Source of the DNA: an uncultured Acidobacteriota bacterium
Lineage (GTDB): Bacteria > Acidobacteriota > Thermoanaerobaculia > Gp7-AA8
DNA: 64,000 nucleotides
Assembly (NCBI GenBank): GCA_963741955.1
Contig: CAVUKB010000001.1
Coordinates: 96,001 to 160,000, forward strand
Reading direction: 5' to 3'
Shown here: positions 19,825 through 63,945 of the stretch, piece by piece
Layout of the letters: each line of letters opens with the position of its first letter
How positions within the stretch are numbered: position 1 is the stretch's first letter
The notes under the pieces: generated by a model
What the model was told of the DNA's origin: nothing
Database searches by the model: none
The model's input: the letters and a program-made list of their open reading frames with translations, nothing else
Position numbers and translations under genes: made by a program

Positions 19825-19948
19825 GCAGCGAGGCCAGATTCGTTCGGATTTGAGGTGCGTAGCGGTGGCGACTCGCCGAAAATCCGGACGGATTTTGACC
19901 GCTGATCCGCTTTCGCAGCAGGACAGTTTTTACCGCGCAGACTCCTAT
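19825..19948. mobile_element. MITE-A partial copy
   Basis: Matches the right part of 33700-33863 and ends in CGCGCAGACTCCTA. Confidence 0.85.
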
Positions 19949-21378: not shown

Positions 21379-21951
21379 ATGCCGCAAGGAGAAGAGACGC
21401 ACGGACACGTTCCACCGATGGAATCGAGCGAAGAGGCGAGCTCGAAACAACTCACCTATGCCCGCAGACAGGGCGACACACTCCAGGATGCGATCGACGC
21501 GATGCTGAAGATGGATCGCCACAGCCAGGAGCGACGTGCGGGCGAGTTCCTGGTCAGCTGCGTGGTCGAGGATGCCGAGGGGATGTGGGTTCCCCGAGAC
21601 GACGGAGCACTCGAATGGGAGGAGCCCGACGAGCAGAATCTCCACGTCGAAGTCCTCGTTCGTGATGGTGCGGACCGCCGCTTCATTCCCGGCCTCCGCG
21701 TCACCCTCACCCTCATCGGCCCGGATGGCAACGAGATCGGAACTCACGAGCAGCCGTTTCTCTGGCACCCATGGCTGTTTCATTACGGGCGGAACTGGAA
21801 AGTTCCGGGAGACGGCGAGTACCGCGCCCGCATCCATATCGACGCTCCCTCCTTCGCGCGGCACGACCACAGGAACGGCAAACGCTATGCGCGGCCGGTG
21901 GACGTCGAGCTCGGACCGATCCACGTCGAGACCGGGAGGAAGGCATCGTAG
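21379..21951 (+). CDS. Iron-transport (P19/Tp34-like) domain protein
   Basis: HVEV..RFIPGL and HYGRNW..PGDGEY motifs; AAAGGAG RBS; no signal peptide seen. Confidence 0.7.
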   Translation: MPQGEETHGHVPPMESSEEASSKQLTYARRQGDTLQDAIDAMLKMDRHSQERRAGEFLVSCVVEDAEGMWVPRDDGALEWEEPDEQNLHVEVLVRDGADRRFIPGLRVTLTLIGPDGNEIGTHEQPFLWHPWLFHYGRNWKVPGDGEYRARIHIDAPSFARHDHRNGKRYARPVDVELGPIHVETGRKAS

Positions 21952-22116
21952 ATCGAGGACCTGAGAGACATCTGAGATCGAGGATCGAGGATCTGAAAGA
22001 CATCGAGGATCTGAGATCGAGGATCGAGGATCTGAAAGACATCGAGGATCTGAGATCGAGGATCGAGGATCTGAAAGGCATCGAGGATCTGAAAGGCATT
22101 CGACATCGAGGATCGG
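21951..22116. repeat. GATC-rich tandem repeat (three 39-bp units built from GAGGATC heptamers)
   Basis: TCTGAGATCGAGGATCGAGGATCTGAAAGACATCGAGGA at 21971, 22010 and 22049. Confidence 0.9.
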
Positions 22117-22248
22117 AGGAGTCCCGAGGAGTGAGAGGGGACCTGTTCGGGCGGGACGGCAGTCCGCCCGCGGAGTCTGGTGGAATCTTTCCCCTTTCCG
22201 GACGTTGTAGCCGCCGTCGGCCGGACCGAACGAACGTCTCGCGGATGG

Positions 22249-22388: not shown

Positions 22389-22615
22389 CTACGACATTCT
22401 CCGAGCCACTGGCAACAGTGGCTCGTCTCGTTTCTGATCCCGGCCCACCGCCGGTCCCGCTTCCGGATCCATCGATTCTCCGTGACGCGCCCTTTCCCGT
22501 TGCTTTCCGAGCCTCGATCCCCGAGCCCCGAGCCTCGATCCCCGAGAAATGCGGGCTGGCATTTCCGGCAGAGCTCTCGCATCTTGTCCAGAGGACATCC
22601 TGACGGAGGGAAAGT

Positions 22616-23119
22616 ATGAAAGAGCAGAACGGACGAAGTCTTCTCGCCGATGTCGCGCTCGGCGCGGCTGCCGGCCTGGCGGGAGCGTGGCTGATGAACC
22701 AGACCACCACCGCGATCTACGACCATCAGTCGGAGGAATCGCTCGAAGAAGAACATCGCGTGCGGGGCGGCGAGAGCGCGTACGAAACGGCTGCGGAGAA
22801 GGCGGCCCGTGCATTCGGGCAGGAATTGACGAAGGATCAGAAATCGACCGCAGCGACGGCGATTCACTGGTCGTTGGGACCGGCCGCCGGTGCGATCTAC
22901 GGCGCTCTCCGTCACGCCATGCCTTCACTCGGTGCCGGGTCGGGAATCGCGTACGGGCTCCTCTTCTGGCTCGCGGTGGACGAAGGTGCGAACACCGCGC
23001 TCGGACTCACCCCGCCCCCGCAGAAGTTCCCGTGGCAGGCGCATGCGCGCGGCGTCGCGGGTCACCTCGTGCTCGGCGCGACGATCGAGTCGGCATTCGA
23101 TCTGTTCGACCGGGCCTAG
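22616..23119 (+). CDS. DUF1440-like membrane protein
   Basis: GAAAGLAG, IHWSLG..GAIYG and GHLVLG motifs; GGAGG RBS. Confidence 0.75.
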   Translation: MKEQNGRSLLADVALGAAAGLAGAWLMNQTTTAIYDHQSEESLEEEHRVRGGESAYETAAEKAARAFGQELTKDQKSTAATAIHWSLGPAAGAIYGALRHAMPSLGAGSGIAYGLLFWLAVDEGANTALGLTPPPQKFPWQAHARGVAGHLVLGATIESAFDLFDRA

Positions 23120-23166
23120 GAGTCTGCGCGATAGCAACGTCCGTAGCGAGAAAGCGGAGCAACGAG
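23116..23166. mobile_element. MITE-A partial copy at the stop codon of the DUF1440-like gene
   Basis: CTAGGAGTCTGCGCG terminus; matches the first ~50 bp of the 33700 copy. Confidence 0.8.
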
Positions 23167-26582: not shown

Positions 26583-26736
26583 CGGGTCTCCGTCTCGAGG
26601 TCTCCGCGGCGGATGATGCGGCTCGCGGACGGGAGGATCTCGGGCAGAGAAATCATACACCCGGGAGGCGAGAGGCGAGAGAGAGTCGAATCCTCATTCG
26701 GATTCAAGAATCCAATCCTCGCCGCTCGCCGCTCGC

Positions 26737-27548
26737 CCTCGAGCCTCGAGAAAATGGGATCGTTCAATCGCCCCTACGGGGCTCTCCGATCGTGCTCTTC
26801 CGCGATCAATCCCAGGACTGCGTCCTGGGCTATTGTCAGACGCCCCTACGGGGCTCCCCGAGCCTCGAGCCCCGAGCCTCGAGCCTCGAGGAAATGGGAT
26901 CGTTCAATCGCCCCTACGGGGCTCTCCGATCGTGGTCTTCCGCGATCAATCCCAGGACTGCGTCCTGGGCTATTGTCAGACGCCCCTACGGGGCTCCCCG
27001 ACCCCCGATCCCCGATCCCCGAGCCTCGAGCCCCGAGCCTCGAGCCCCGAGCCTCGAGCCTCGAGAAAATGGGATCGTTCAATCGCCCCTACGGGGCTCT
27101 CCGATCGTGGTCTTCCGCGATCAATCCCAGGACTGCGTCCTGGGCTATTGTCAGACGCCCCTACGGGGCTCGCCGACCCCCGAGCCTCGAGCCTCGAGCC
27201 CCGAGCCTCGAGCCCCGAGCCTCGAGCCCCGAGCCTCGAGCCTCGAGCCTCGAGAAAATGGGATCGTTCAATCGCCCCTACGGGGCTCTCCGATGGTGCT
27301 CTTCCGCGATCAATCCCAGGACTGCGTCCTGGGCTATTGTCAGACGCCCCTACGGGGCTCCCCGATCCCCGATCCCCGAGCCTCGAGCCTCGAGCCTCGA
27401 GCCTCGAGCCTCGAGCCTCGAGAAAATGGGATCGTTCAATCGCCCCTACGGGGCTCTCCGATCGTGGTCTTCCGCGATCAATCCCAGGACTGCGTCCTGG
27501 GCTATTGTCAGACGCCCCTACGGGGCTCCCCGACCCCCGATCCCCGAG
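26737..27548. repeat. Array of five 105-bp palindromic units separated by variable heptamer strings
   Basis: Units start at 26751, 26891, 27066, 27255 and 27423; each has two GCCCC-TAC-GGGGC hairpins and one CCCAGGAC-TGC-GTCCTGGG hairpin. Confidence 0.95.
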
Positions 27549-27566
27549 TGATACCATCCCACGGCC

Positions 27567-28409
27567 ATGCGGTACGCTCTGATCCGATTTCTCAACGCCC
27601 GTCCGCTCTGGTGGGGACTGACTCACCGTCCGGGGCAGGACGACCAGCTTCGCTTCACGTCTCCCGCGCTCTGTGCCGACCTCGTCGCGGACGGCGCGGT
27701 CGACCTCGGGTTGATTCCGGCGATCGAGCTCGCCCGGATCCCCGACGTGGTCGCGGTTCCCTCGATCTGCATCGGTTCGAGAACGGAAGTCCGGAGCGTT
27801 CTTCTCGTCTCTCGCGTTCCGTTCGAAGAGATCCGCTCGGTCGCGCTCGATCCGAGCTCGCGAACGTCCGTCGCGCTCACCCGGATCCTTCTCGCGGAGA
27901 AGCTGGGAGAGGAGACCTACCGCACGATCCGTTTTGATCCGAGCGAGCGAGGGCGTCTCCTCGCTCTCGAGGGTCACGATGCGGCGGTGGTCATCGGCGA
28001 CCCGGCGTTGCAGATCTCGCGGGATCCCGGCCCGTCGATCCGTTTTCGCTACGACCTCGTGTCGGAGTGGAACGCGTTGTTCGGTGATCCCTTCGTTTTC
28101 GCCCTCTGGGCGGGGCGCCGCGACTCCCTGGAGCGATTTCTGGCGGAAGAGGTGCATGAACGGCTTCTGGCGAGCCGTGCGTTCGGAATCTCACAGGAAG
28201 AAGTCATCGCGCGCGAAGCGTCGGAGGAGCTCGCTCTTCCGTACGAAGAGCTGCTGGATTACTTCCGCTCCGCTCTGCATTACGAATTCGGCGAAGACGA
28301 GCGCCGCGCGCTTGCGCGTTTTTACGACCTCGCGGCAAAATACGCCCTCATCGAGGGGAGGAAGGAGATCGAATGGCTGTTCGATCCGAAGAAGTCGCAG
28401 ACATCCTGA
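27567..28409 (+). CDS. mqnA: Chorismate dehydratase (futalosine pathway)
   Basis: FLNARPL, VRSV, SRTSVAL, IGDPAL and PFVFALW motifs; next to mqnC. Confidence 0.9.
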   Translation: MRYALIRFLNARPLWWGLTHRPGQDDQLRFTSPALCADLVADGAVDLGLIPAIELARIPDVVAVPSICIGSRTEVRSVLLVSRVPFEEIRSVALDPSSRTSVALTRILLAEKLGEETYRTIRFDPSERGRLLALEGHDAAVVIGDPALQISRDPGPSIRFRYDLVSEWNALFGDPFVFALWAGRRDSLERFLAEEVHERLLASRAFGISQEEVIAREASEELALPYEELLDYFRSALHYEFGEDERRALARFYDLAAKYALIEGRKEIEWLFDPKKSQTS

Positions 28410-29829: not shown

Positions 29830-30363
29830 ATGAGGACCTACGAAGTCCTGGTCATTCTCTCTCCGCGTATGACGGAAGAGGAGATCAACAGCACCATCTC
29901 CGATCTCAAGGGAATCGCCGAGAGCACGGGTGCCACGCTCGCCACCGAGGAAGCGTGGGGCCGTCGCCGACTGGCGTACCCGATCAACAAAGTACAGGAC
30001 GGGACCTACCACCTGTTCGTTTTCGAGAGTGAGCAGGAGCTCGCCGAGCTCGACCGGCGCATGAAGAACATGGAGTCGGTGATCCGGCACATGATCGTGC
30101 GGACGGATCTCGAGCAGCGCCGCGCCGTGAAGCTCGCCAAGAAGCGGAAGCCGCGCCGTCCGGCGCCGGGAACCGCGCCTGCGGAGACCGCGACGCCCGC
30201 GCCTGCGGAAACGGCGACGCCCGCGCCTGCGGAAACGGCGACGCCCGCGCCTGCGGAGACCGCGACGCCCGCGCCTGCGGAAACGGCGACGCCCGCGCCT
30301 GCGGCCACGCCTGACGAGGCGCCCGCCTCGAAGCCTGCCGCCCCCGAAGCGGCGGCGGAATAA
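29830..30363 (+). CDS. rpsF: 30S ribosomal protein S6 with repetitive C-terminal tail
   Basis: MRTYEVLVIL and WGRRRLAYPI motifs. Confidence 0.95.
   Translation: MRTYEVLVILSPRMTEEEINSTISDLKGIAESTGATLATEEAWGRRRLAYPINKVQDGTYHLFVFESEQELAELDRRMKNMESVIRHMIVRTDLEQRRAVKLAKKRKPRRPAPGTAPAETATPAPAETATPAPAETATPAPAETATPAPAETATPAPAATPDEAPASKPAAPEAAAE
30175..30304 (+). repeat. Coding 24-bp tandem repeat (APAETATP x5)
   Basis: GCGCCTGCGGARACSGCGACGCCC five times plus a partial copy. Confidence 0.92.
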
Positions 30364-33402: not shown

Positions 33403-33490
33403 CCCTCCTCACTCGCCCAACCCCAGTGCCGCAGGTTGGGTTGAGAATTGCCACGGGGGAAGGCGCTCCGCGCCGGAACCCGGAGTTCAC
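33403..33490 (-). repeat. REP-like family C, reverse degenerate copy
   Basis: Reverse complement contains CCGGGTTCCGGCGCGGAGCGCCTTC..GGCAATT. Confidence 0.65.
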
Positions 33491-33699
33491 GCGCGCGAGA
33501 TCCCCGTTTCTTTGCCTGTCTCGATCATCGAGGGGGCGCGACGCGTTCCTGGGGCGCGGGAGCCACCGCCCTGAAGAACGTCCTGCACGCGGCGTGACCG
33601 GCCGTCGCCATTCGGATTGACTCTGAGCGAGATCGGCATCGCACCGGAAGATCGACACCCGGGGCCGAATCACCGACTTGCGCGCCACAAGCGATGAAC

Positions 33700-33863
33700 C
33701 TAGGAGTCTGCGCGGTAGAAACGTCCGTAGCGAGAAAGTGGAGCAGCGAGGCCAAATTCGTTCGGATTTGAGGTTCGTAGCGGCTACTCGCCGAAAAACC
33801 GGACGGATTTGGACCGCTGATCCGTTTTCGCAGTAGGACAGTTTCCATCGCGCAGACTCCTGG
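33700..33863. mobile_element. MITE-A full copy (160-bp spacing; 3-nt internal deletion; opposite orientation to 36389)
   Basis: CTAG-GAGTCTGCGCG...CGCGCAGACTC-CTGG. Confidence 0.9.
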
Positions 33864-34392: not shown

Positions 34393-34626
34393 TTGGCGCA
34401 GCTGATCGTTCGTAATCTCGACGAGTCGCTCGTTCGCGAGCTCAAACAGCGAGCCGTCCGTCATGGGCGCTCGGCGGAGGAAGAGCACCGGCAGATCCTT
34501 CGGGAGGTGCTGCGTCCGAAGCGAAAGAGGCGTTCCCTCAAGGAGCTGCTGACGGCCATGCCCGAGGTTGGAGAGGACGCTGACTTCGAGCGTGCGGACG
34601 ATCGCGGGCGGACGGTCGAGCTATGA
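34393..34626 (+). CDS. FitA-like ribbon-helix-helix antitoxin
   Basis: AQLIVRNLDE..LKQRA..HGRSAEEEHRQIL; GGAGGAG RBS. Confidence 0.88.
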   Translation: MAQLIVRNLDESLVRELKQRAVRHGRSAEEEHRQILREVLRPKRKRRSLKELLTAMPEVGEDADFERADDRGRTVEL

Positions 34627-35036
34627 GCTGGCTGCTGGATACGAACGTGATCTCCGAGATCCGCAAGGGCCCGCGCTGCAATCCGGGTGTCGCGTCGTGG
34701 TGGGCCTCGGTCGCCGACGATGAAATCTTTCTCAGCGTACTCACCACGGGCGAGATCCGGCGGGGAATCGAGAGCATCCGACGAAGAGACCGGAAATCCG
34801 CGGCCGCCCTGGAGAGATGGCTCCGGCAGCTGGTGAAGGACTACTCCGAAAGGCTGCTTCCGATCGATGCGGAAATTGCCGACCAGTGGGCGCGAATGAA
34901 CGTTCCCGATCCGCTTCCGGTGATCGACGGGCTTCTCGCCGCGACTGCGAAGGTTCACGACCTGATCCTGGTGACCCGCAACGCTCGGGACGTCGAGCGC
35001 ACGGAGATTCGGGTTCTCGATCCGTTCACCGCGTGA
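34623..35036 (+). CDS. vapC: VapC/FitB PIN-domain toxin
   Basis: LLDTNVISE, DGLLAATA and LVTRNARD motifs; ATGA overlap with the antitoxin. Confidence 0.9.
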   Translation: MSWLLDTNVISEIRKGPRCNPGVASWWASVADDEIFLSVLTTGEIRRGIESIRRRDRKSAAALERWLRQLVKDYSERLLPIDAEIADQWARMNVPDPLPVIDGLLAATAKVHDLILVTRNARDVERTEIRVLDPFTA

Positions 35037-35129: not shown

Positions 35130-35357
35130 TCACTCCGCCAGCCGACGAAAGACCCCGGCAAAACGATCATTGATCTCGTCGACCGCTTTCTTCAGTTTCC
35201 GATTGCGGGCACCGGTGCGAACGGGCGAAATGATCACCACATCGCCATAGGTGGAGATCTCGAGGTCCGTGTTCTCGTCGATCCCCGTCTGTTCGAGCAG
35301 CGGACGATCGAGGATCAGCGAGAGGCTGTTGCCGGTGCGCACCAGTCGTTTGCTCAT
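35130..35357 (-). CDS. AbrB/MazE family antitoxin
   Basis: KRLVRTGNSLSLILDR N-terminus and FRRLAE C-terminus. Confidence 0.85.
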   Translation of the reverse strand: MSKRLVRTGNSLSLILDRPLLEQTGIDENTDLEISTYGDVVIISPVRTGARNRKLKKAVDEINDRFAGVFRRLAE

Positions 35358-35626
35358 GTTCGTACGAATGCCGGAAGCCGTTCGTACCATTCCACCTCGT
35401 CCACTTCCCGCCGGTCAACTCCGGGACCGCATCGTCGCCTTCGGGATCCTCGGACCCAGTTTGTGATCTCCACCTTCCTTCAGCTTCTGACTCGGACATA
35501 CTCCTCTATCTGACCGGGACCTCCTTCGATGGAGCGCGCGCGAACGGGAACTTCGGGGCGCTCCGGGCGTTGTCTCTGTGGACGCGCGAAAGTCTGATGC
35601 CAGCTGCCCGGAGGAGAGTGCCGACG

Positions 35627-37231
35627 TTGAAGCGACCAGTCCTGGTTTCCCTTCTTCTTTTCTCGACGCTGCTGCCGATCGGTTGCGCGCACACGGCCGC
35701 AGTGAATCGAGCCGCCACCGGATCGAACGAAGCGCGGATTGCCCGAGAGCTCGACCAGTACCTGACCATTCGCTCGGAGATGGGCGCGTTCAGCGGCGCA
35801 GTCCTCGTGGTCCGCGACGGCAGAACGATCTTCAGAAAGGGCTACGGGTACGCCGACGTCGCCCGGCGAGTCCCTTTCACGCCGGAGACGCGGCACGAGG
35901 TCGCATCCGTCTCGAAGATGTTCACGGCCATGGCTGCCCTGAAGTTGCGCGACGCCGGCAGGCTCACTCTTCAGGACTCGATCTGCCTTCACCTTCCCGA
36001 CTGTCCCGCGCAGTGGAAGCCGATCACGGTCGACGAGCTGATCCACCACACCTCCGGCATCCCCGACTATGAAGAGAAGCTCGGTCTCGGCTCCGAGAAA
36101 TACATGCGGTTCATGGAGGCGCAGGACGCGTCGAAGCGGATTTTCGAGGAAGCGAAGTCGCTCCCTCTCGGCTTCGAGCCGGGTACGAAGTTCGAGTACA
36201 GCAACACCGGCTACATCGTCCTCTCGCACGTAATCGAAAACGCGGCTGGCGAGGCGTTCGAGCGCTTCGTCCGGGAGACGCTTCTCGTTCCCGCCGGGAT
36301 GAGCCGTTCGGGCGTTCTCGGCGCCGGGCCGCTTCCACCCGATCTCGCCATCGGCTACACGCACGACGACCTGGGCTGGGAGCGGACCCTAGGAGTCTGC
36401 GCGGTAGAAACTGTCCTACTGCGAAAGCGGATCAACGGTCCAAATCCGCCCGGATTTTCGGCGAGTAGCCACCGCTACGCACCTCAAATCCGAACGAATT
36501 TGGCCTCGTTGCTCCGCTTCTCGCTACGGACGTTTCTATCGCGCAGACTCCTAGCCGGCGTGCCTCTGACCGAGGAGCATCTCGAGGCGCAGCCGTTCCT
36601 TCCTCTCACGCCCCCCGAAGGAGATGCGTGGCTGTACAGTACGGTCGACGACCTCGCCCGCTGGAGCGAGATCATGGACGGCAGCGCGCTCGTTCCTCCC
36701 GCGGAGGCAGCGGAAGTGTTCACGCCGGAGCAGGACGGCTACGGCGAAGGCTGGTTCATCGGCAACGCCTTCGGTCGGCGGCGCTATCGCCACACCGGCT
36801 CGCTGCCGGGGTACACGACGGACTTCATCGAGTTCCCGGACGACCACCTGACCATCGTCGTCTTCAGCAATCTGGATCGCGCTCCGATGGTTCACATTGT
36901 CCGCAACGTCTCTCTGATCGCACTGGGGATGCCGTACGACATGCCGGTGAGGGGTAAGGTCGTGAAGTTGACTCCGGAAGAGATCGCGCCCCTGGAAGGG
37001 ACCTACAGGATGGCGGACGGGACGGAGGTCGAGATTCGTAACGAGCCGAAGTACCTCACGGCCGACGTCAAGCGGAGATATACTGCCGGCCTCATTCCAC
37101 TCTCGCCGACTCGCTTCTACATGCCCCTCGCCGATGGCATTGTGACCTTCACTCCCGGCCCGGACGAACGAGCGGAGAGCGTGAACCTCCACTACAGCGC
37201 AGAAGACCATGTAGCGCAGCGAATGAAGTAG
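35627..37231 (+). CDS. Serine hydrolase (beta-lactamase/PBP-like) lipoprotein with a 54-aa in-frame MITE insert
   Basis: SVSK, YSN and HTG motifs; lipobox-like LPIGC; start could be 35597 or 35627. Confidence 0.85.
   Translation: MKRPVLVSLLLFSTLLPIGCAHTAAVNRAATGSNEARIARELDQYLTIRSEMGAFSGAVLVVRDGRTIFRKGYGYADVARRVPFTPETRHEVASVSKMFTAMAALKLRDAGRLTLQDSICLHLPDCPAQWKPITVDELIHHTSGIPDYEEKLGLGSEKYMRFMEAQDASKRIFEEAKSLPLGFEPGTKFEYSNTGYIVLSHVIENAAGEAFERFVRETLLVPAGMSRSGVLGAGPLPPDLAIGYTHDDLGWERTLGVCAVETVLLRKRINGPNPPGFSASSHRYAPQIRTNLASLLRFSLRTFLSRRLLAGVPLTEEHLEAQPFLPLTPPEGDAWLYSTVDDLARWSEIMDGSALVPPAEAAEVFTPEQDGYGEGWFIGNAFGRRRYRHTGSLPGYTTDFIEFPDDHLTIVVFSNLDRAPMVHIVRNVSLIALGMPYDMPVRGKVVKLTPEEIAPLEGTYRMADGTEVEIRNEPKYLTADVKRRYTAGLIPLSPTRFYMPLADGIVTFTPGPDERAESVNLHYSAEDHVAQRMK
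36389..36554. mobile_element. MITE-A full copy inserted in frame in the CDS
   Basis: CTAG at 36389 and 36551 (162 bp apart); TIR GAGTCTGCGCG(G/A)TAGAAAC. Confidence 0.95.
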
Positions 37232-37460
37232 GGGCCACCTTTTGCGGAGCGTCGGTGAGCATCCCCTCGCCAGGCAGTGGGGAGGAGTCACGGCGGTCCT
37301 CGAGACGTTGGCCACGACGGGCGTCATTGCGCTGGGTGGCCTCGGGCGGTCACGCCGCGTGCAGGAGATCTCTCTCGTTTAACCTCCGGCATCGCGGGCG
37401 CGCGCCGCGCCCGCCTGGATTTCCGAGACGGGCAACAGGAATCGTCGGCGTGGGCGGGTT

Positions 37461-37556
37461 CCCCGGGTTACGGCGCGGAGCGCCTTCACCCGGGGCAATT
37501 GTCAATCGCGCCTACGGCGCTGGAAGTTGCGCGAGTGGGAATGGGGGTCGCTTCGT
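37461..37556 (+). repeat. REP-like family C
   Basis: GGCGC-GGA-GCGCC and GCGCC-TAC-GGCGC hairpins; close match to 42686-42780. Confidence 0.8.
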
Positions 37557-37657
37557 CGTGAAGGTCCACCAAAGTCCTGCACGGATGTCGCGGGGCCGTG
37601 ACGGGAGACGATCTTCCCGCGGACACTCCTCTGGTATCCTTGCCCGCGGAGAAAACC

Positions 37658-39835: not shown

Positions 39836-39842
39836 ACGCGAA

Positions 39843-39920
39843 CCCCGGGTTCCGGCGCGGAGGGCCTCCAGCTGGGGCAATCGTCCATCGCGTCTGCGGC
39901 GCTTGGGGTCGTGCGGGAGG
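39843..39920 (+). repeat. REP-like family C, degenerate copy
   Basis: CCCCGGGTTCCGGCGCGGAGGGCC..GGGGCAAT. Confidence 0.7.
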
Positions 39921-40061
39921 GAGTGGAGCGTGCTTTGCGGGGACGGTGCCGGTGGCCTCGGTGAGGAATCTGAGTTTCAGGGTGCCCCTTACGCTTCCCT
40001 CTCACCGAAGACGGGCGTCGGCTGAAGACATGACCCCGGACGTGAAGGCCGCGCGAACGGG

Positions 40062-41209: not shown

Positions 41210-42055
41210 TCAATACGTGTTGAGCGCGAAAATTGCGAACGGTTGACTCGCATCCGTGAGATATCCGGGCAGCCAGGGGCGAGAAGCCCCAAGGTCCTTC
41301 GAATGGACGTACACCGTGAAAGATGACCCTGAGTATGGCGGAACGACGACGAGTTCGACGTTGTTCGTGCTCTCAGGCGATGGCATGATGCATGTTGCGT
41401 AGCTCTGCTCTGTAGAGGGGTTGATGTAATTACCCCAATAGGTCGCGCAGTTGCCGAAGTATACCTCAAGATCGAGATCTCTGGTGAGGAGCGGGCTTGC
41501 ATTCCCGGGTGCGGACGCGAAGTCGGACCACGCGAGCACGATTACCGTCCGTTTTGATTGATCGGCCACCGTGAACGTCCGGGACCGCTGTTGGCCTGAA
41601 TCCGTGAAGTTAGCGAGGGTTCCTTCGTCCAGGTAGGTTTTTGTCCAAGCGTTGGTCGAGGAGGTAGCCAAGGTAGAGACGTCCGAATCCCTGACCCGTG
41701 GTGATGTCAGGAATTCCGTTGACGGTGCCAGCGGTGTATTGATCCTTCCCGCCCTTGAGCGAATATGCACCACCAACGAGCGCGGCTTTCATCATGGCAG
41801 CCGAGAACCGATTCGTCGTTGTTCGGCCTTGTTTCGCGTTGATGAGAGCTATCGCGGCGGCGGCTTGTGGAGACGCGAAGCTCGTTCCTGAAGACAGCTG
41901 GTAATCAGCGTCGGTCGTCGTGCCGTACCCTGTGCTGCAAAAGTACGTTGAATAGCTGTGTTTCATGCGAGCGACCGTAACCAGTGTGGATGGCGCGACG
42001 AGTTCCGGTTTGATTCTGCCGTCCCCTGCAGCAACGCCGCGGCGACTCACGAGAC
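41210..42055 (-). pseudogene. Subtilase (S8, KP-43-like) 3' half, frameshifted near 41660
   Basis: DGRIKPELVAP, SGTSFASP and QGFGR in one frame; LAWSD, DLDL and NNVE in another; 5' half missing. Confidence 0.85.
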
Positions 42056-42061
42056 TCCGAC

Positions 42062-42203
42062 GGGCGCCACGGCTCCCGCCGTGGCCGCGCAGATCGCCTT
42101 CAGAACGGCAACGAGACGACACCTGCGGCAGATGCGCAGTAGCTCCGCGCATCTGCTCTGTGAACACCCACAGTGCCCCTTAAGTTCAGGCCATTGGGGC
42201 TAG
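42062..42203 (-). mobile_element. MITE-B partial copy
   Basis: Reverse-complement match to 63714-63854; ends in CTAG. Confidence 0.85.
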
Positions 42204-42248
42204 GCGTGGGCCCGGCGTTGACGCGTGCCGTACGCCTCCAACGTCGCC

Positions 42249-42550
42249 CTGATCCATTCGAGCGTCATCACGTGCGACAGCGTCGCCTCCCACACCGCCT
42301 GCATCTGCTCGCCCTTGAAGAGAGCGCGATCGAAGTGTCACTGGGTCAGTGGATTATGAGAGAGAACCGACAGGCGAAGGCCTGACCCCCCCGTCGATCC
42401 TGATCCATTCGAGCGTCATCACGTGCGACAGCGTCGCCTCCCACACCGCCTGCATCTGCTCGCCCTTGAAGAGAGCGCGACCGAAGTGTCACTGGGTCAG
42501 TGGATTATGAGAGAGAACCGACAGGCGACGGCCTGACCCCCCCGTCGATC
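42249..42550. repeat. 151-bp tandem duplication
   Basis: 42249-42399 vs 42400-42550; two mismatches seen. Confidence 0.92.
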
Positions 42551-42664: not shown

Positions 42665-42685
42665 TGTGGCTCTGGCGTGCATGGT

Positions 42686-42780
42686 CCCCGGGTTCTGGCG
42701 CGGAGCGCCTTCACCCGGGCAATTGTCAATCGCGCCTACGGCGCCTGGAGTCGCGCGAGTGTGGGTGGAGGTCGCTTCGT
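42686..42780 (+). repeat. REP-like family C
   Basis: Close match to 37461-37556. Confidence 0.8.
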
Positions 42781-42833
42781 GGGGACGATTCACCGAAGTC
42801 CTGGAGTACGGAGGTCGAGACCTCGGCCGCTCA

Positions 42834-61384: not shown

Positions 61385-62950
61385 ATGAAGCGACTATACT
61401 CGACGGCAGGGACGGGTGCGATTCTCATCTGGGCGGCGATCGTCTTTGCGCAGACTACCTCGACCGCCACGCTCAGCTTGCCCGGCTCCCAGCGCACCAT
61501 CGCGACGGTGGAGTCGAACGGCCGAACGTTCTTCTCGGCCGATGACGTGGTGACTGCACTCGGCGGAACGGTCACCTCCGACAATCACGGGTTTCTCGCC
61601 ACGATCGGAGATCAGCAGGCTGCGTTCGGTCCGGACACACGATTCGGCGTCGTCCGGGACGACCTGATCGAGATGCCGGTCGAGCCGATGGTCGTCGACG
61701 GTCGTGCCTACGTACCATGGCAGTTCTTTCAGGGAGTGCTCCAGAAATCCTCCAATCAACAGGTGAGCTGGGACGCAACGAATCGGATTCTTGCCATACG
61801 GCCTTCACCCAAGCAGACGCTCAACGCACAGCTTTCGCTGGTGGACCTCGGCGGGCTCTCGAAGCTCGTGATCCAGCTCTCGGGAAAGAGCGACTACGAC
61901 GTGTCGCGGGAGCGCGACTACTACGCGATCCGTTTCAAGTCGCCGATACAGGCGCCGCCCGAGCAGTCGTTCGACGATCCGCTCGTCACGCGGATGGTCT
62001 CCCGGAACAACGAGATCGACGTCTGGTTCGCGTCACCCGAGGTGACTGCGACGTCGTACAGTCTGGAGAAGCCGTTCCGGGTCGTGCTCGATTTCAGGAA
62101 AGGCGTCCCGGAGCTCAAGCCCGGAGTGACGCTGCAGACCCCTCTCGCAGTGCCGAATGCGAAGCCGGCTGGAATCCGGACCATCGTCCTCGACCCGGGT
62201 CACGGCGGGAAGGAAGTCGGCGCGATCGGACCGTCGGGGCTGATGGAAAAGGACGCCACGCTGGAGCTCTGCAGGCGTCTTCAGAACCTTCTCACGTCGC
62301 GTCTCGGCGTCCGGGTGGTGCTCACTCGTGACGACGACTCGGTCGTTCCGCTCGAGCAGCGCACCGCCGTGGCGAACCAGTACAAGGCGGATCTCTTTCT
62401 CTCCGTCCACATGAATGCCGCAACGGTGAAGGGGGCGAAGGGAACCGAAACGTACTTCCTCTCTCTCGACGCGTCCGACGAAGTTGCGAGACGTGCAGCG
62501 GAGATCGAGAACGCGTCGGCGAGCTCTGCGCCGGGAGGGAAGTCGGACCTGAAGATGATCCTCTGGGATCTCGCACAGCAGGAGTACCTCAACGAGTCGC
62601 ATCGTCTCGCCGTCGACGTTCAGGACGAGATGAACACTCTCGCAGGGATCCAGGGTCGTGGCGTGAAGCAGGCTCCGTTCAAGGTTCTGGTCGGAGCGAC
62701 GATGCCCGCTGCGCTGGTGGAAGTCGCGTTCATCACCAACCCCGACGAAGAGGCGAAGCTCCGGAGCGATCGGTTCCAGGAGCAGGCAGCGGATGCACTC
62801 GAGCACGCGATCGCGAAATTCAAGAGCGAGTACGAGGCACGGATCGGTCTCGGCGGCCCGGAGACATCCGGGCGAGCCGCAGCGCCAGCCGCCGCGGCAG
62901 CACCTCCCCCCGCATCTCCAGCACCGTCGAAGAAGTCCGGGAGCTCCTGA
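61385..62950 (+). CDS. N-acetylmuramoyl-L-alanine amidase (Amidase_3)
   Basis: VLDPGHGGKE, EKDATL, LTRDDD, FLSVHMN and ALVEVAF motifs. Confidence 0.92.
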   Translation: MKRLYSTAGTGAILIWAAIVFAQTTSTATLSLPGSQRTIATVESNGRTFFSADDVVTALGGTVTSDNHGFLATIGDQQAAFGPDTRFGVVRDDLIEMPVEPMVVDGRAYVPWQFFQGVLQKSSNQQVSWDATNRILAIRPSPKQTLNAQLSLVDLGGLSKLVIQLSGKSDYDVSRERDYYAIRFKSPIQAPPEQSFDDPLVTRMVSRNNEIDVWFASPEVTATSYSLEKPFRVVLDFRKGVPELKPGVTLQTPLAVPNAKPAGIRTIVLDPGHGGKEVGAIGPSGLMEKDATLELCRRLQNLLTSRLGVRVVLTRDDDSVVPLEQRTAVANQYKADLFLSVHMNAATVKGAKGTETYFLSLDASDEVARRAAEIENASASSAPGGKSDLKMILWDLAQQEYLNESHRLAVDVQDEMNTLAGIQGRGVKQAPFKVLVGATMPAALVEVAFITNPDEEAKLRSDRFQEQAADALEHAIAKFKSEYEARIGLGGPETSGRAAAPAAAAAPPPASPAPSKKSGSS

Positions 62951-62951
62951 C

Positions 62952-63554
62952 GTGCGCGCAGAGAAGAAGTCTTTCCTCATTATTTTCGTCGCGGCCGTGG
63001 CTCTGGTCGTGGCGTGCTCGCGTGGTTCGCGCAACAACTCCGAAGTCGTATCCGCTCGCGTGCGGGAAGCGAACAAGGTCGCCACCCGCGCGGTGACGCT
63101 CTACTTCGAGTCGCCGGATCTCGTGCTCGTCCCCGAGAAGCGCAACGTCGCGCTCCCGGAGAGCGACGTCGCGGCGGTCTCCACCGTCGTTCGTGAATTG
63201 CTCGCCGGCTCCTCGAACGCTGCGGTCGCGAGATCGTTCCCGAAGGATGCCGCCCTTCGTGGCGCATTCCTTCTTTCCGACGGGACGGCGATCATCGATC
63301 TCGGCGGCGACACTCTCGCCACGGGCTGGAACACCGGGAGCCACGAAGAGTTGATGGCGGTCTATTCGCTGGTGCAGACTCTGATGGACAACTTCCCCTC
63401 GGTGAAGCGGGTCAGGATTCTCGTCAACGGCCAGCCGGCTCCGACTCTCGCGGGCCACGTCGCCATCGATCACGCGCTGAAACCTCTGACCTGGCTCGTC
63501 GCCGCACAGCCCCCCGCACCGGCCGCGCCACAGCCTCCTCAAGAGGGGCGCTAG
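62952..63554 (+). CDS. GerMN domain lipoprotein
   Basis: VVAC lipobox; VTLYF, ELLAG, VYSLVQTL and LAGHV motifs; follows the amidase. Confidence 0.85.
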   Translation: MRAEKKSFLIIFVAAVALVVACSRGSRNNSEVVSARVREANKVATRAVTLYFESPDLVLVPEKRNVALPESDVAAVSTVVRELLAGSSNAAVARSFPKDAALRGAFLLSDGTAIIDLGGDTLATGWNTGSHEELMAVYSLVQTLMDNFPSVKRVRILVNGQPAPTLAGHVAIDHALKPLTWLVAAQPPAPAAPQPPQEGR

Positions 63555-63717
63555 GAGTCTGCGCGGTAGAAACTGTCCTACTGCGAAAGCGGATCAACGG
63601 TCCAAATCGGTCCGGATTTTCGGCGAGTAGCCACCGCTACGCACCTCAAATCCGAACGAATTTGGCCTCGCTGCTCCGCTCTCTCGCTACGGACGTTTCT
63701 ACCGCGCAGACTCCTAG
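63551..63717. mobile_element. MITE-A full copy (163-bp spacing) at the GerMN stop codon
   Basis: CTAG at 63551 and 63714; TIR GAGTCTGCGCGGTAGAAAC. Confidence 0.95.
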
Positions 63718-63945
63718 CCCCAATGGCCCGAACTTGAGGGGCGCTGTGGGTGTTCAGAGAGCAGATGCGCGGAGTTACTACGCATCTGCCGCAGGTGGCG
63801 TCTCGTTGCGTTCTGAAGGCGATCTGCGCGGCCACGGCGGGAGCCGGGGCGCCCCTCGGAGAGGGGATCCTTCGCTGCCCAGCAAGCTCGCGTCGACTCC
63901 CGGCTGACACGCTGATTTTGCTCAAGTTCGGGCCATTGTCTTTAG
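63714..63945. mobile_element. MITE-B full copy
   Basis: 18-bp perfect inverted repeat CAATGGCCCGAACTTGAG (63721-63738 / 63921-63938), flanked by CTAG and TTAG. Confidence 0.85.

Follow-up and report, generated by a model that had tools for sequence, protein, structure and literature searches.

A miniature inverted-repeat element lying in frame within a serine hydrolase gene of an uncultured Acidobacteriota bacterium

The 64,000-nt stretch of contig CAVUKB010000001.1 analyzed here (positions 96,001 to 160,000 of the forward strand; hereafter the window), from an uncultured Acidobacteriota bacterium, contained a serine hydrolase gene with a MITE (miniature inverted-repeat transposable element) midway along its coding sequence. 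The element and its duplicated target bases added 162 bp to the gene, and the open reading frame (ORF) continued through 54 additional codons to the HTG motif and the C-terminal domain. This copy lacked one T that was present in its relatives, and the copy with this private, frame-preserving deletion was also the sole intragenic copy in the window and among the relatives listed. A selective filter for frame preservation was judged the best explanation, and a reasonably probable one; that selection acted, the sequence in which the events took place, and the capacity of the protein fold to bear the insert are what we infer from these observations.

The hydrolase gene and the inserted element

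The ORF 35570..37231 (553 aa) was free of stop codons through the element, in agreement with the initial annotation, which had described an insert of 162 bp and 54 stop-free codons. The N-terminus of the product resembled a signal peptide, and Pfam PF00144 (beta-lactamase/transpeptidase-like) matched residues 70–440 as a single stretch (E = 7.6e-61). The SxxK, YxN and HTG motifs, previously reported as retained, were all present, with their S, K, Y, N, H, and G residues in invariant columns of a 15-homologue alignment. The structure predicted by AlphaFold2 for the 544 aa following the likely ATG start, based on a 121-row alignment, had a predicted template modeling score (pTM) of 0.84 and a predicted local distance difference test score (pLDDT) of ≥90 for 419 of the 544 residues; the insert was looped out, its site lying between the short strands 253–256 and 329–332. 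The best fold matches of this model in the PDB were two-domain hydrolases resembling penicillin-binding proteins (PBP-like), namely 7spn (IS11 esterase), 2qmi (Pab87), 6ksu (SurE), and 1ei5 (D-aminopeptidase), with a probability of 1.00 for 7spn, 2qmi, and 1ei5, and such two-domain hydrolases were also the top PDB matches by sequence. Domain, motifs and fold matches all placed the protein among the PF00144 (S12) serine hydrolases of PBP-like fold. The NCBIfam cut-offs exclude it from the class C beta-lactamases of resistance type: the score on NF033085 (bla_class_C) was 52.1 bits where 415 are required, and every named class C family fell far below its own cut-off.

An alignment to homologues without the insert had been proposed in the initial annotation. 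Homologues were drawn from a search of 5.8 billion protein clusters, which gave 1163 matches; the best 120 were 431–508 aa long, came mostly from Acidobacteriota and were named serine hydrolase or CubicO-group peptidase. The 54 residues were absent from all 120 of them. In the alignments of 15 and of 120 homologues, the break fell exactly between the conserved blocks GYTHxDLGW(E/D)K(T/M/S) and LAG(V)PL..GHL. This position shows that the gene itself supplied one CTA-G, everything else being insertion. The best homologue among these 120 was 57% identical (BLASTP), and neither a close orthologue nor an empty-site allele was found in the protein-cluster search.

The inserted sequence is a MITE, as had been proposed. 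The span from CTAG to CTAG in the gene was 166 bp (158-bp core). The element can be written either as GGAGTC...GACTCC flanked by TA within CTAG, or with a 4-bp CTAG repeat on either side of GAGTC...GACTC; the sequence fits duplication of TA as well as of CTAG, and both descriptions lead to the same net addition of 162 bp, or 54 stop-free codons. CTAG thus stood on both sides of the element, one of the two being the native site indicated by the homologues. The ends were inverted repeats of 20 nt with one mismatch between them, and this 20-nt repeat occurred eight times in the window at ≤3 mismatches, compared to 0.01 expected from shuffled sequences. The element was 160 bp long and had no transposase gene, its sole open frame being that of the host gene. 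It was present as multiple dispersed copies, with three full copies and two fragments in the window, insert-like sequence in four proteins on other contigs, and relatives in other genomes, and its ends were shared with an autonomous insertion sequence (IS) of the IS1182 family from another phylum (L040, 1493 bp). The whole gene copy was a near-perfect palindrome that was predicted to fold into a single hairpin of −101.8 kcal/mol (z = −13.8). An Rfam match to a plant microRNA precursor was sub-threshold (26 bits; gathering score, 100) and was taken as a chance match to the long hairpin.

The reading frame of the gene depends on a single base. The segment GCTCCGCT-TCTCGCTAC of the gene copy was 17 nt long, whereas the three other window copies spanning the site had one base more, confirming the difference of 17 and 18 nt first noticed; when the window copies were aligned with seven relatives from other Acidobacteriota genomes, only the gene copy, 1 of 10, had the gap. 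A T run 30 bp from its right end is one T short, which accounts for its length of 160 bp where 161 bp is usual in the family. That this deletion makes the addition a multiple of three, as originally stated, was true of the gene copy alone. Because the addition is 162 bp, the HTG motif stays in frame; with 163 bp, a reading begun in the same frame loses phase at the right end and shifts to a frame that is open to 36957 (ORF 36628..36957), so that the HTG motif and the C-terminal domain are skipped. Among the six frames of the gene copy, forward frame 0 (CTA GGA GTC ...) was the only one without stop codons, and it is the frame that the gene uses.

Table 1. Coordinates of the hydrolase gene, its motifs, the inserted element and the other copies in the window.
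Feature	Position	Strand	Remarks
Serine hydrolase gene	35597..37231	+	Likely start ATG 35597; ORF open from TTG 35570; PF00144 and C-terminal beta-rich domain
SxxK motif (S-V-S-K)	35906-35917	+	Upstream of insert
YxN motif (Y-S-N)	36197-36205	+	Upstream of insert
Left CTAG (target site)	36389-36392	.	CTA is the gene's native Leu codon; homologues ...GW(E/D)K(T/M/S)-L-(A/G)G...
MITE proper, GGAGTC...GACTCC	36392-36551	+	160 bp; with duplicated target bases translated as 54 codons
Left terminal inverted repeat	36392-36411	+	0 mismatches to pattern
17-nt segment with unique 1-nt deletion	36511-36527	+	TT at 36518-36519; relatives TTT, TCT or TTC
Right terminal inverted repeat	36532-36551	-	1 mismatch
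Right CTAG (duplicated target, TA or CTAG)	36551-36554	.	CTAG flanks also on full-length IS L040 and most relatives
HTG motif	36791-36799	+	Downstream of insert; in frame only with 162-bp addition
Intergenic copy	63551-63717	+	Net 163 bp; left CTAG gives TAG stop of GerMN-domain gene 62793..63554
Intergenic copy	33700-33863	-	Net 160 bp; lacks 3 nt; left flank CCAG, mutated from CTAG
Truncated copy	19825-19947	-	Left end only
Fragment	about 23115-23166	-	Right end only; abuts TAG stop of DUF1440 gene 22604..23119

Relatives of the element in the window, in proteins and in other genomes

The net additions of the three full copies in the window were 162, 163, and 160 bp. The 163 bp first given for the intergenic copy at 63551 was measured again, but the full copies are not uniform, as seen in the copy at 33700. 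Long ORFs over the copies at 33700, 19825, and 23115 were considered as further in-frame cases and rejected as spurious, with a flat GC content across codon positions and no Pfam match. Two copies sat exactly at gene ends (63551–63554 and 23116–23119), the TAG stops of the GerMN-domain gene and of the DUF1440 gene, respectively, being the TAG of the flanking CTAG, which suggests that C-TAG stop codons are favored as landing sites of the element. The tetranucleotide itself was avoided in the window, with 12 occurrences per 64 kb compared to ∼215 expected from base composition or 37 from a Markov estimate (GATC, for comparison, occurred 849 times), and 6 of the 12 CTAG sites flanked copies of this MITE.

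Among 1.84 billion representative proteins, nine matched the 54-residue insert at E ≤0.001, four of them real relatives; P0125–P0129, from the same search, were repetitive proteins unrelated to the insert. A word-indexed search of longer proteins yielded four proteins with insert-like sequence, and among short ORFs (29–95 aa) none contained the insert peptide. The nearest sister of the gene copy, P0121, known as a protein alone, was a cytochrome c with its domain complete at residue 228 and the element from residue 229. Up to the deletion, across 44 codons, it was identical to the gene copy and had the same two variants that are missing from the other window copies; after the deletion point it continued as ...LLRFLATDVSIAQTP, i.e., in the 3n+1 reading. 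All three complete close copies seen as proteins (P0121, P0122, and P0130) were in this 3n+1 frame (...FLATDVS[IT]AQTP), while a further close copy, P0123, stopped at a contig end. The names attached to P0123 and to the hydrolase homologues make Acidobacteriota (Thermoanaerobaculia) the most likely host. Judged from its translation, P0121, the closest sister known, carries the extra T. In P0122, a weak VTT/DedA match (E = 0.0014, below the cut-off) was cut at the element, so that here the same MITE has probably broken a gene. P0124, with 49% identity to the insert peptide, consisted of two head-to-tail 54-codon units in one open frame; by its sequence it is a related MITE subfamily with a 162-nt unit, in tandem.

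A scan of 185,579 species genomes for the terminal repeat gave at least 70 matches, and the family counts below hold among the matches listed. The matches were of three kinds, comprising full-length ISs, many matches at contig ends, and elements of MITE size, found in Acidobacteriota and Gammaproteobacteria. The matches listed included none from the genome of the window itself, the closest being 79% identical, and no autonomous IS partner from that genome was found in the window or among these matches. The IS L040, located in a Pseudomonadales metagenome-assembled genome, had the same ends and CTAG on both flanks, and its transposase of 440 aa contained DUF772, DDE_Tnp_1, and DDE_Tnp_1_6 and scored 352.7 bits on NF033551 (IS1182 family, cut-off 270). 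The window element has in common with it the CTAG flanks and about the first 20 nt of the terminal repeats (GGAGTCTGCGCGGTAGAAAC), but the former is a 160-bp element devoid of transposase and the latter a full-length IS. A 1.2-kb pair of ends at L055 was rejected as an IS, ordinary genes lying between the ends.

Pairing of ends defined 22 elements of 150–170 bp, of which 13 were 161 bp and 4 were 162 bp long, with one each of 151, 159, 163, 166, and 170 bp. The prevailing length of 161 bp (13 of 22) corresponds to a net addition of 163 bp, and the net addition was divisible by three in just 3 of the 22 relatives. None of the 23 elements examined among the matches listed (the 22 and a 120-bp one in L065) had a mid-gene position with coding sequence on both sides. 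A 3n relative inside an 870-nt ORF (L030) was rejected as such a case, GC being higher at first than at third codon positions (GC1 > GC3) and the translation antisense-like. Forward frame 0 was open in 4 of the 10 aligned copies, while 4 had two internal stops and 2 a terminal stop; in this alignment the family does not share an open forward frame. Gammaproteobacterial genomes contained MITEs of 161 bp that had identical ends but other interiors (Milos-ODIII6, Woeseiaceae; loci L007, L015, L034, L054, L067, L070, L005, L013, and others); the length of the MITE was kept across phyla, and its core sequence was not.

Selection, chance or error

The favored explanation would run as follows. A non-autonomous palindromic MITE with IS1182-family ends would have inserted at one of the genome's very few CTAG sites, in this case the CTA-G (Leu) within the gene of a secreted S12/class-C-like serine hydrolase. 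It would have entered in the sole orientation and phase free of stop codons, and with the 162-bp addition the gene would read on to the HTG motif and the C-terminal domain, giving a protein with an arginine-rich, probably unstructured excursion of 54 residues between two short strands, in the YxN–HTG stretch. The hydrolase, presumably under purifying selection, would act as the filter, in that either only a 3n variant could persist at the site, or a 163-bp insertion may have been rescued by a later 1-nt slippage deletion. The insert would then be a tolerated passenger rather than a demonstrated new functional module.

The composition and alignment of the two gene halves indicate that both keep coding composition and conserved residues. 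Codon-position GC was 0.63/0.47/0.82 upstream of the insert (GC3 0.815) and 0.65/0.44/0.81 downstream (GC3 0.805), like that of the window's other real genes. Residues conserved at ≥95% were kept in 74 of 74 cases upstream and 61 of 63 downstream, and eight control homologues kept 57–60 of 60–62 highly conserved residues in the downstream part. In a dispensable gene, the ORF would survive roughly 3–8% of insertions that strike intragenic CTAG sites at random, an estimate obtained as one of two orientations × one of the two phases allowed × the share of 3n lengths (3/22, at most about a third); in a gene that is needed, ORF-keeping insertions are the only ones that can be seen. A frame-preserving copy arising by chance is unlikely yet not rare, because length variants are common in the family. 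A selective filter is favored over chance or error because this rate is low and the private deletion is found in the sole intragenic copy.

Several observations weigh against such a filter. Length variants were frequent, with 9 of the 22 relatives off the 161-bp mode, and the missing base belongs to a T run, where sequencing errors typically occur. The codon-position GC of the insert was flat (0.57/0.54/0.59), which is a non-coding composition; the insert was strongly basic (9 basic residues vs. 1 acidic), split a strongly conserved motif (GYTHxDLGW.. from LAGxPL..GHL), and had no confident structure in the AlphaFold2 model, in which residues 261–317, essentially the insert, had a pLDDT <50. 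The mRNA of the hydrolase would contain a 166-nt hairpin of −101.8 kcal/mol. The gene was absent from a collection of 15 billion proteins, although three neighboring window proteins were present there (on a 513,416-nt contig). Among the best 120 of 1163 matches there was no orthologue close enough to date or polarize the insertion, the best being 57% identical. The near identity to P0121 makes the insertion look very recent, and since it is young, the lack of downstream decay is weak evidence for selection.

Chance is the most serious rival to a selective filter, though an unlikely one. A young insertion, neutral or mildly harmful, would have struck a dispensable paralogue, its 3n length and open frame being coincidental, and the protein would be misfolded or not made and the gene decaying. 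The estimated 3–8%, the recent date, the non-coding composition of the insert, the split motif and the lack of confident structure are all consistent with this, as are the missing protein record and the probable breakage of a gene by the same MITE in P0122; yet chance leaves to coincidence that the unique frame-preserving deletion occurs in just that copy which lies inside a gene, and that its orientation and phase are the only open ones. The absence of downstream decay also speaks against a decaying gene, though a young insertion would show none anyway.

It is very improbable that the open frame is an assembly or polishing error, with one more T at 36518–36519, an addition of 163 bp and a gene that is simply disrupted. 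The difference is indeed a single base in a T run, no protein was called for the hydrolase gene in the public collection, and the related records are on contigs of 0.5–1.5 Mb, which would be compatible with long-read assemblies. However, Pfam matched 29 of the window's 38 ORFs and no domain was seen split across neighboring ones, and indel errors are therefore not frequent in the window; an error exactly at the frame-restoring spot would be improbable, and polishing errors induced by repeats should pull the copy towards the family consensus and not away from it.

In class C beta-lactamases, the loop between the YxN and KTG motifs (omega loop) tolerates short insertions, with shifts in substrate range. 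By profile alignment, the insertion site maps roughly to the YxN–KTG stretch, which we take to correspond to the omega loop; class C profiles ended at residues 271–272 of the protein, at about position 241–242 of 382 of the profile. The difference from omega-loop variants is that here 54 residues of transposon origin lie in a non-class-C hydrolase (52 bits vs. 415). Beyond this position, roughly at the presumed omega loop, nothing in the sequence pointed to an adaptive role of the insert. That a 163-bp MITE broke a needed hydrolase, that one-base slippage rescued the frame, and that the 54 residues now form an enlarged active-site loop altering binding is, taken together, quite improbable; if true, it would be a caught-in-the-act conversion of a transposon into enzyme sequence outside Rickettsia. 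Least probable of all is that the insert is already a useful part of the enzyme, e.g., a longer loop beside the active site altering substrate access or partner binding, since despite the preserved frame and the class C profiles that stop near the presumed omega loop, the insert was in no orthologue (best 120 of 1163), was identical to its non-coding sister copy in P0121 over the 44 codons before the deletion, and had a flat composition, a pLDDT <50 and a frame that is not conserved in the family.

The initial annotation had concluded that selection kept or created a frame-preserving variant and that a selfish element is becoming new protein sequence. This interpretation was supported in part: its first half agrees with the open frame and with a deletion unique to this copy, while the flat GC and the low pLDDT of the insert argue against the second.

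Surroundings, precedents and significance

Just upstream of the hydrolase gene (34393–35036) was a toxin–antitoxin pair, in which a FitA-like ribbon-helix-helix antitoxin (E = 4e-17) overlapped a PIN-domain toxin (E = 9e-14), and a small AbrB/MazE-looking ORF without a Pfam match was found on the minus strand at 35130–35390. A second dispersed intergenic repeat family of ∼90–130 nt (37449–37579, 39837–39961, 42668–42803, and, inverted, 33421–33503) flanked the hydrolase and prolyl oligopeptidase genes. Tandem arrays at 26716–27590, 30149–30333, 21938–22117, and 42248–42549 comprised 175–189-nt units of 7-nt CCCCGAG/CCTCGAG sub-repeats, a 24-nt array, a 39-nt array, and a 151-nt unit present twice. 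About 160 nt adjoining the MITE copy at 63551 (63702–63861) recurred inverted at 42055–42215 (90–96%), and this pair may represent either another repeat or a flank that was duplicated.

Correia elements of Neisseria are MITEs of ∼100–150 bp with terminal repeats of ∼26 bp, a TA duplication and long hairpins in transcripts. They disrupt coding sequences at times (PMC10969869), and they differ from the window element in belonging to another sequence family and another host and in being mostly intergenic; the available text of PMC10969869 does not claim an in-frame enzyme insertion for them. More generally, in-frame fusions caused by intragenic MITEs are described in that text as not unusual, the Rickettsia palindromic elements (RPEs) being the extreme case, with a total of 44 in R. 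conorii, of which almost half lie in ORFs (PMC10969869). The initial annotation had named RPEs as the precedent for repeats translated inside proteins. By description, the likeness is that of palindromic repeats of ∼150 bp lying in coding genes, in frame and stop-free, and adding a peptide to conserved proteins (PMC10969869). Unlike RPEs, which occur many times per genome, the window element gave one in-frame case among the available copies; its terminal inverted repeats are also clear, it has a CTAG/TA duplication and a relative in the IS1182 family, and its open frame is not conserved among its own relatives. Recurrent in-frame insertion with a conserved peptide, as in RPEs, was thus not seen, there being one mid-gene case, a frame open in 4 of 10 copies, and none of the 23 relatives mid-gene among the matches listed.

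In Coxiella, QMITE1 and QMITE2 alter the 3′ ends of genes and are sometimes in frame within hypothetical ORFs (PMC5896051). Along with ERIC, BOX, and Anabaena MITEs, they resemble the present case in replacing or extending gene 3′ ends or lying in frame in ORFs, as far as the available parts of these sources describe them (PMC5896051, PMC10969869). Their C-terminal mode is mirrored by P0121, in which the cytochrome c domain is complete before the element begins. In the cases described for Coxiella, the functional genes affected are hit at their 3′ ends, whereas here the site is mid-domain, between catalytic motifs, and is accompanied by a private frame-preserving deletion. A literature search on IS1182-derived MITEs with CTAG targets and on RPE structure gave nothing useful, and no claim is made as to whether this MITE family is in print.

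In-frame insertion of a MITE has already been described, for RPEs and QMITEs, and this kind of event is not new. The particular features of this case are the mid-domain site in a recognizable enzyme, the IS1182-type ends, and the single private frame-preserving deletion. In-frame MITE insertions are one of the few bacterial routes to wholly new peptide segments in old proteins, and the documented cases are mostly from Rickettsia or from gene 3′ ends. In the hydrolase gene, a single private base is the difference between a broken and an open gene, and a near-identical non-coding sister copy is available for comparison. Were the deletion not real or the protein not made, this would be an ordinary young insertion; if the deletion is real and the protein is made, it would be a clean, datable example of the first step along this route, that of tolerance.

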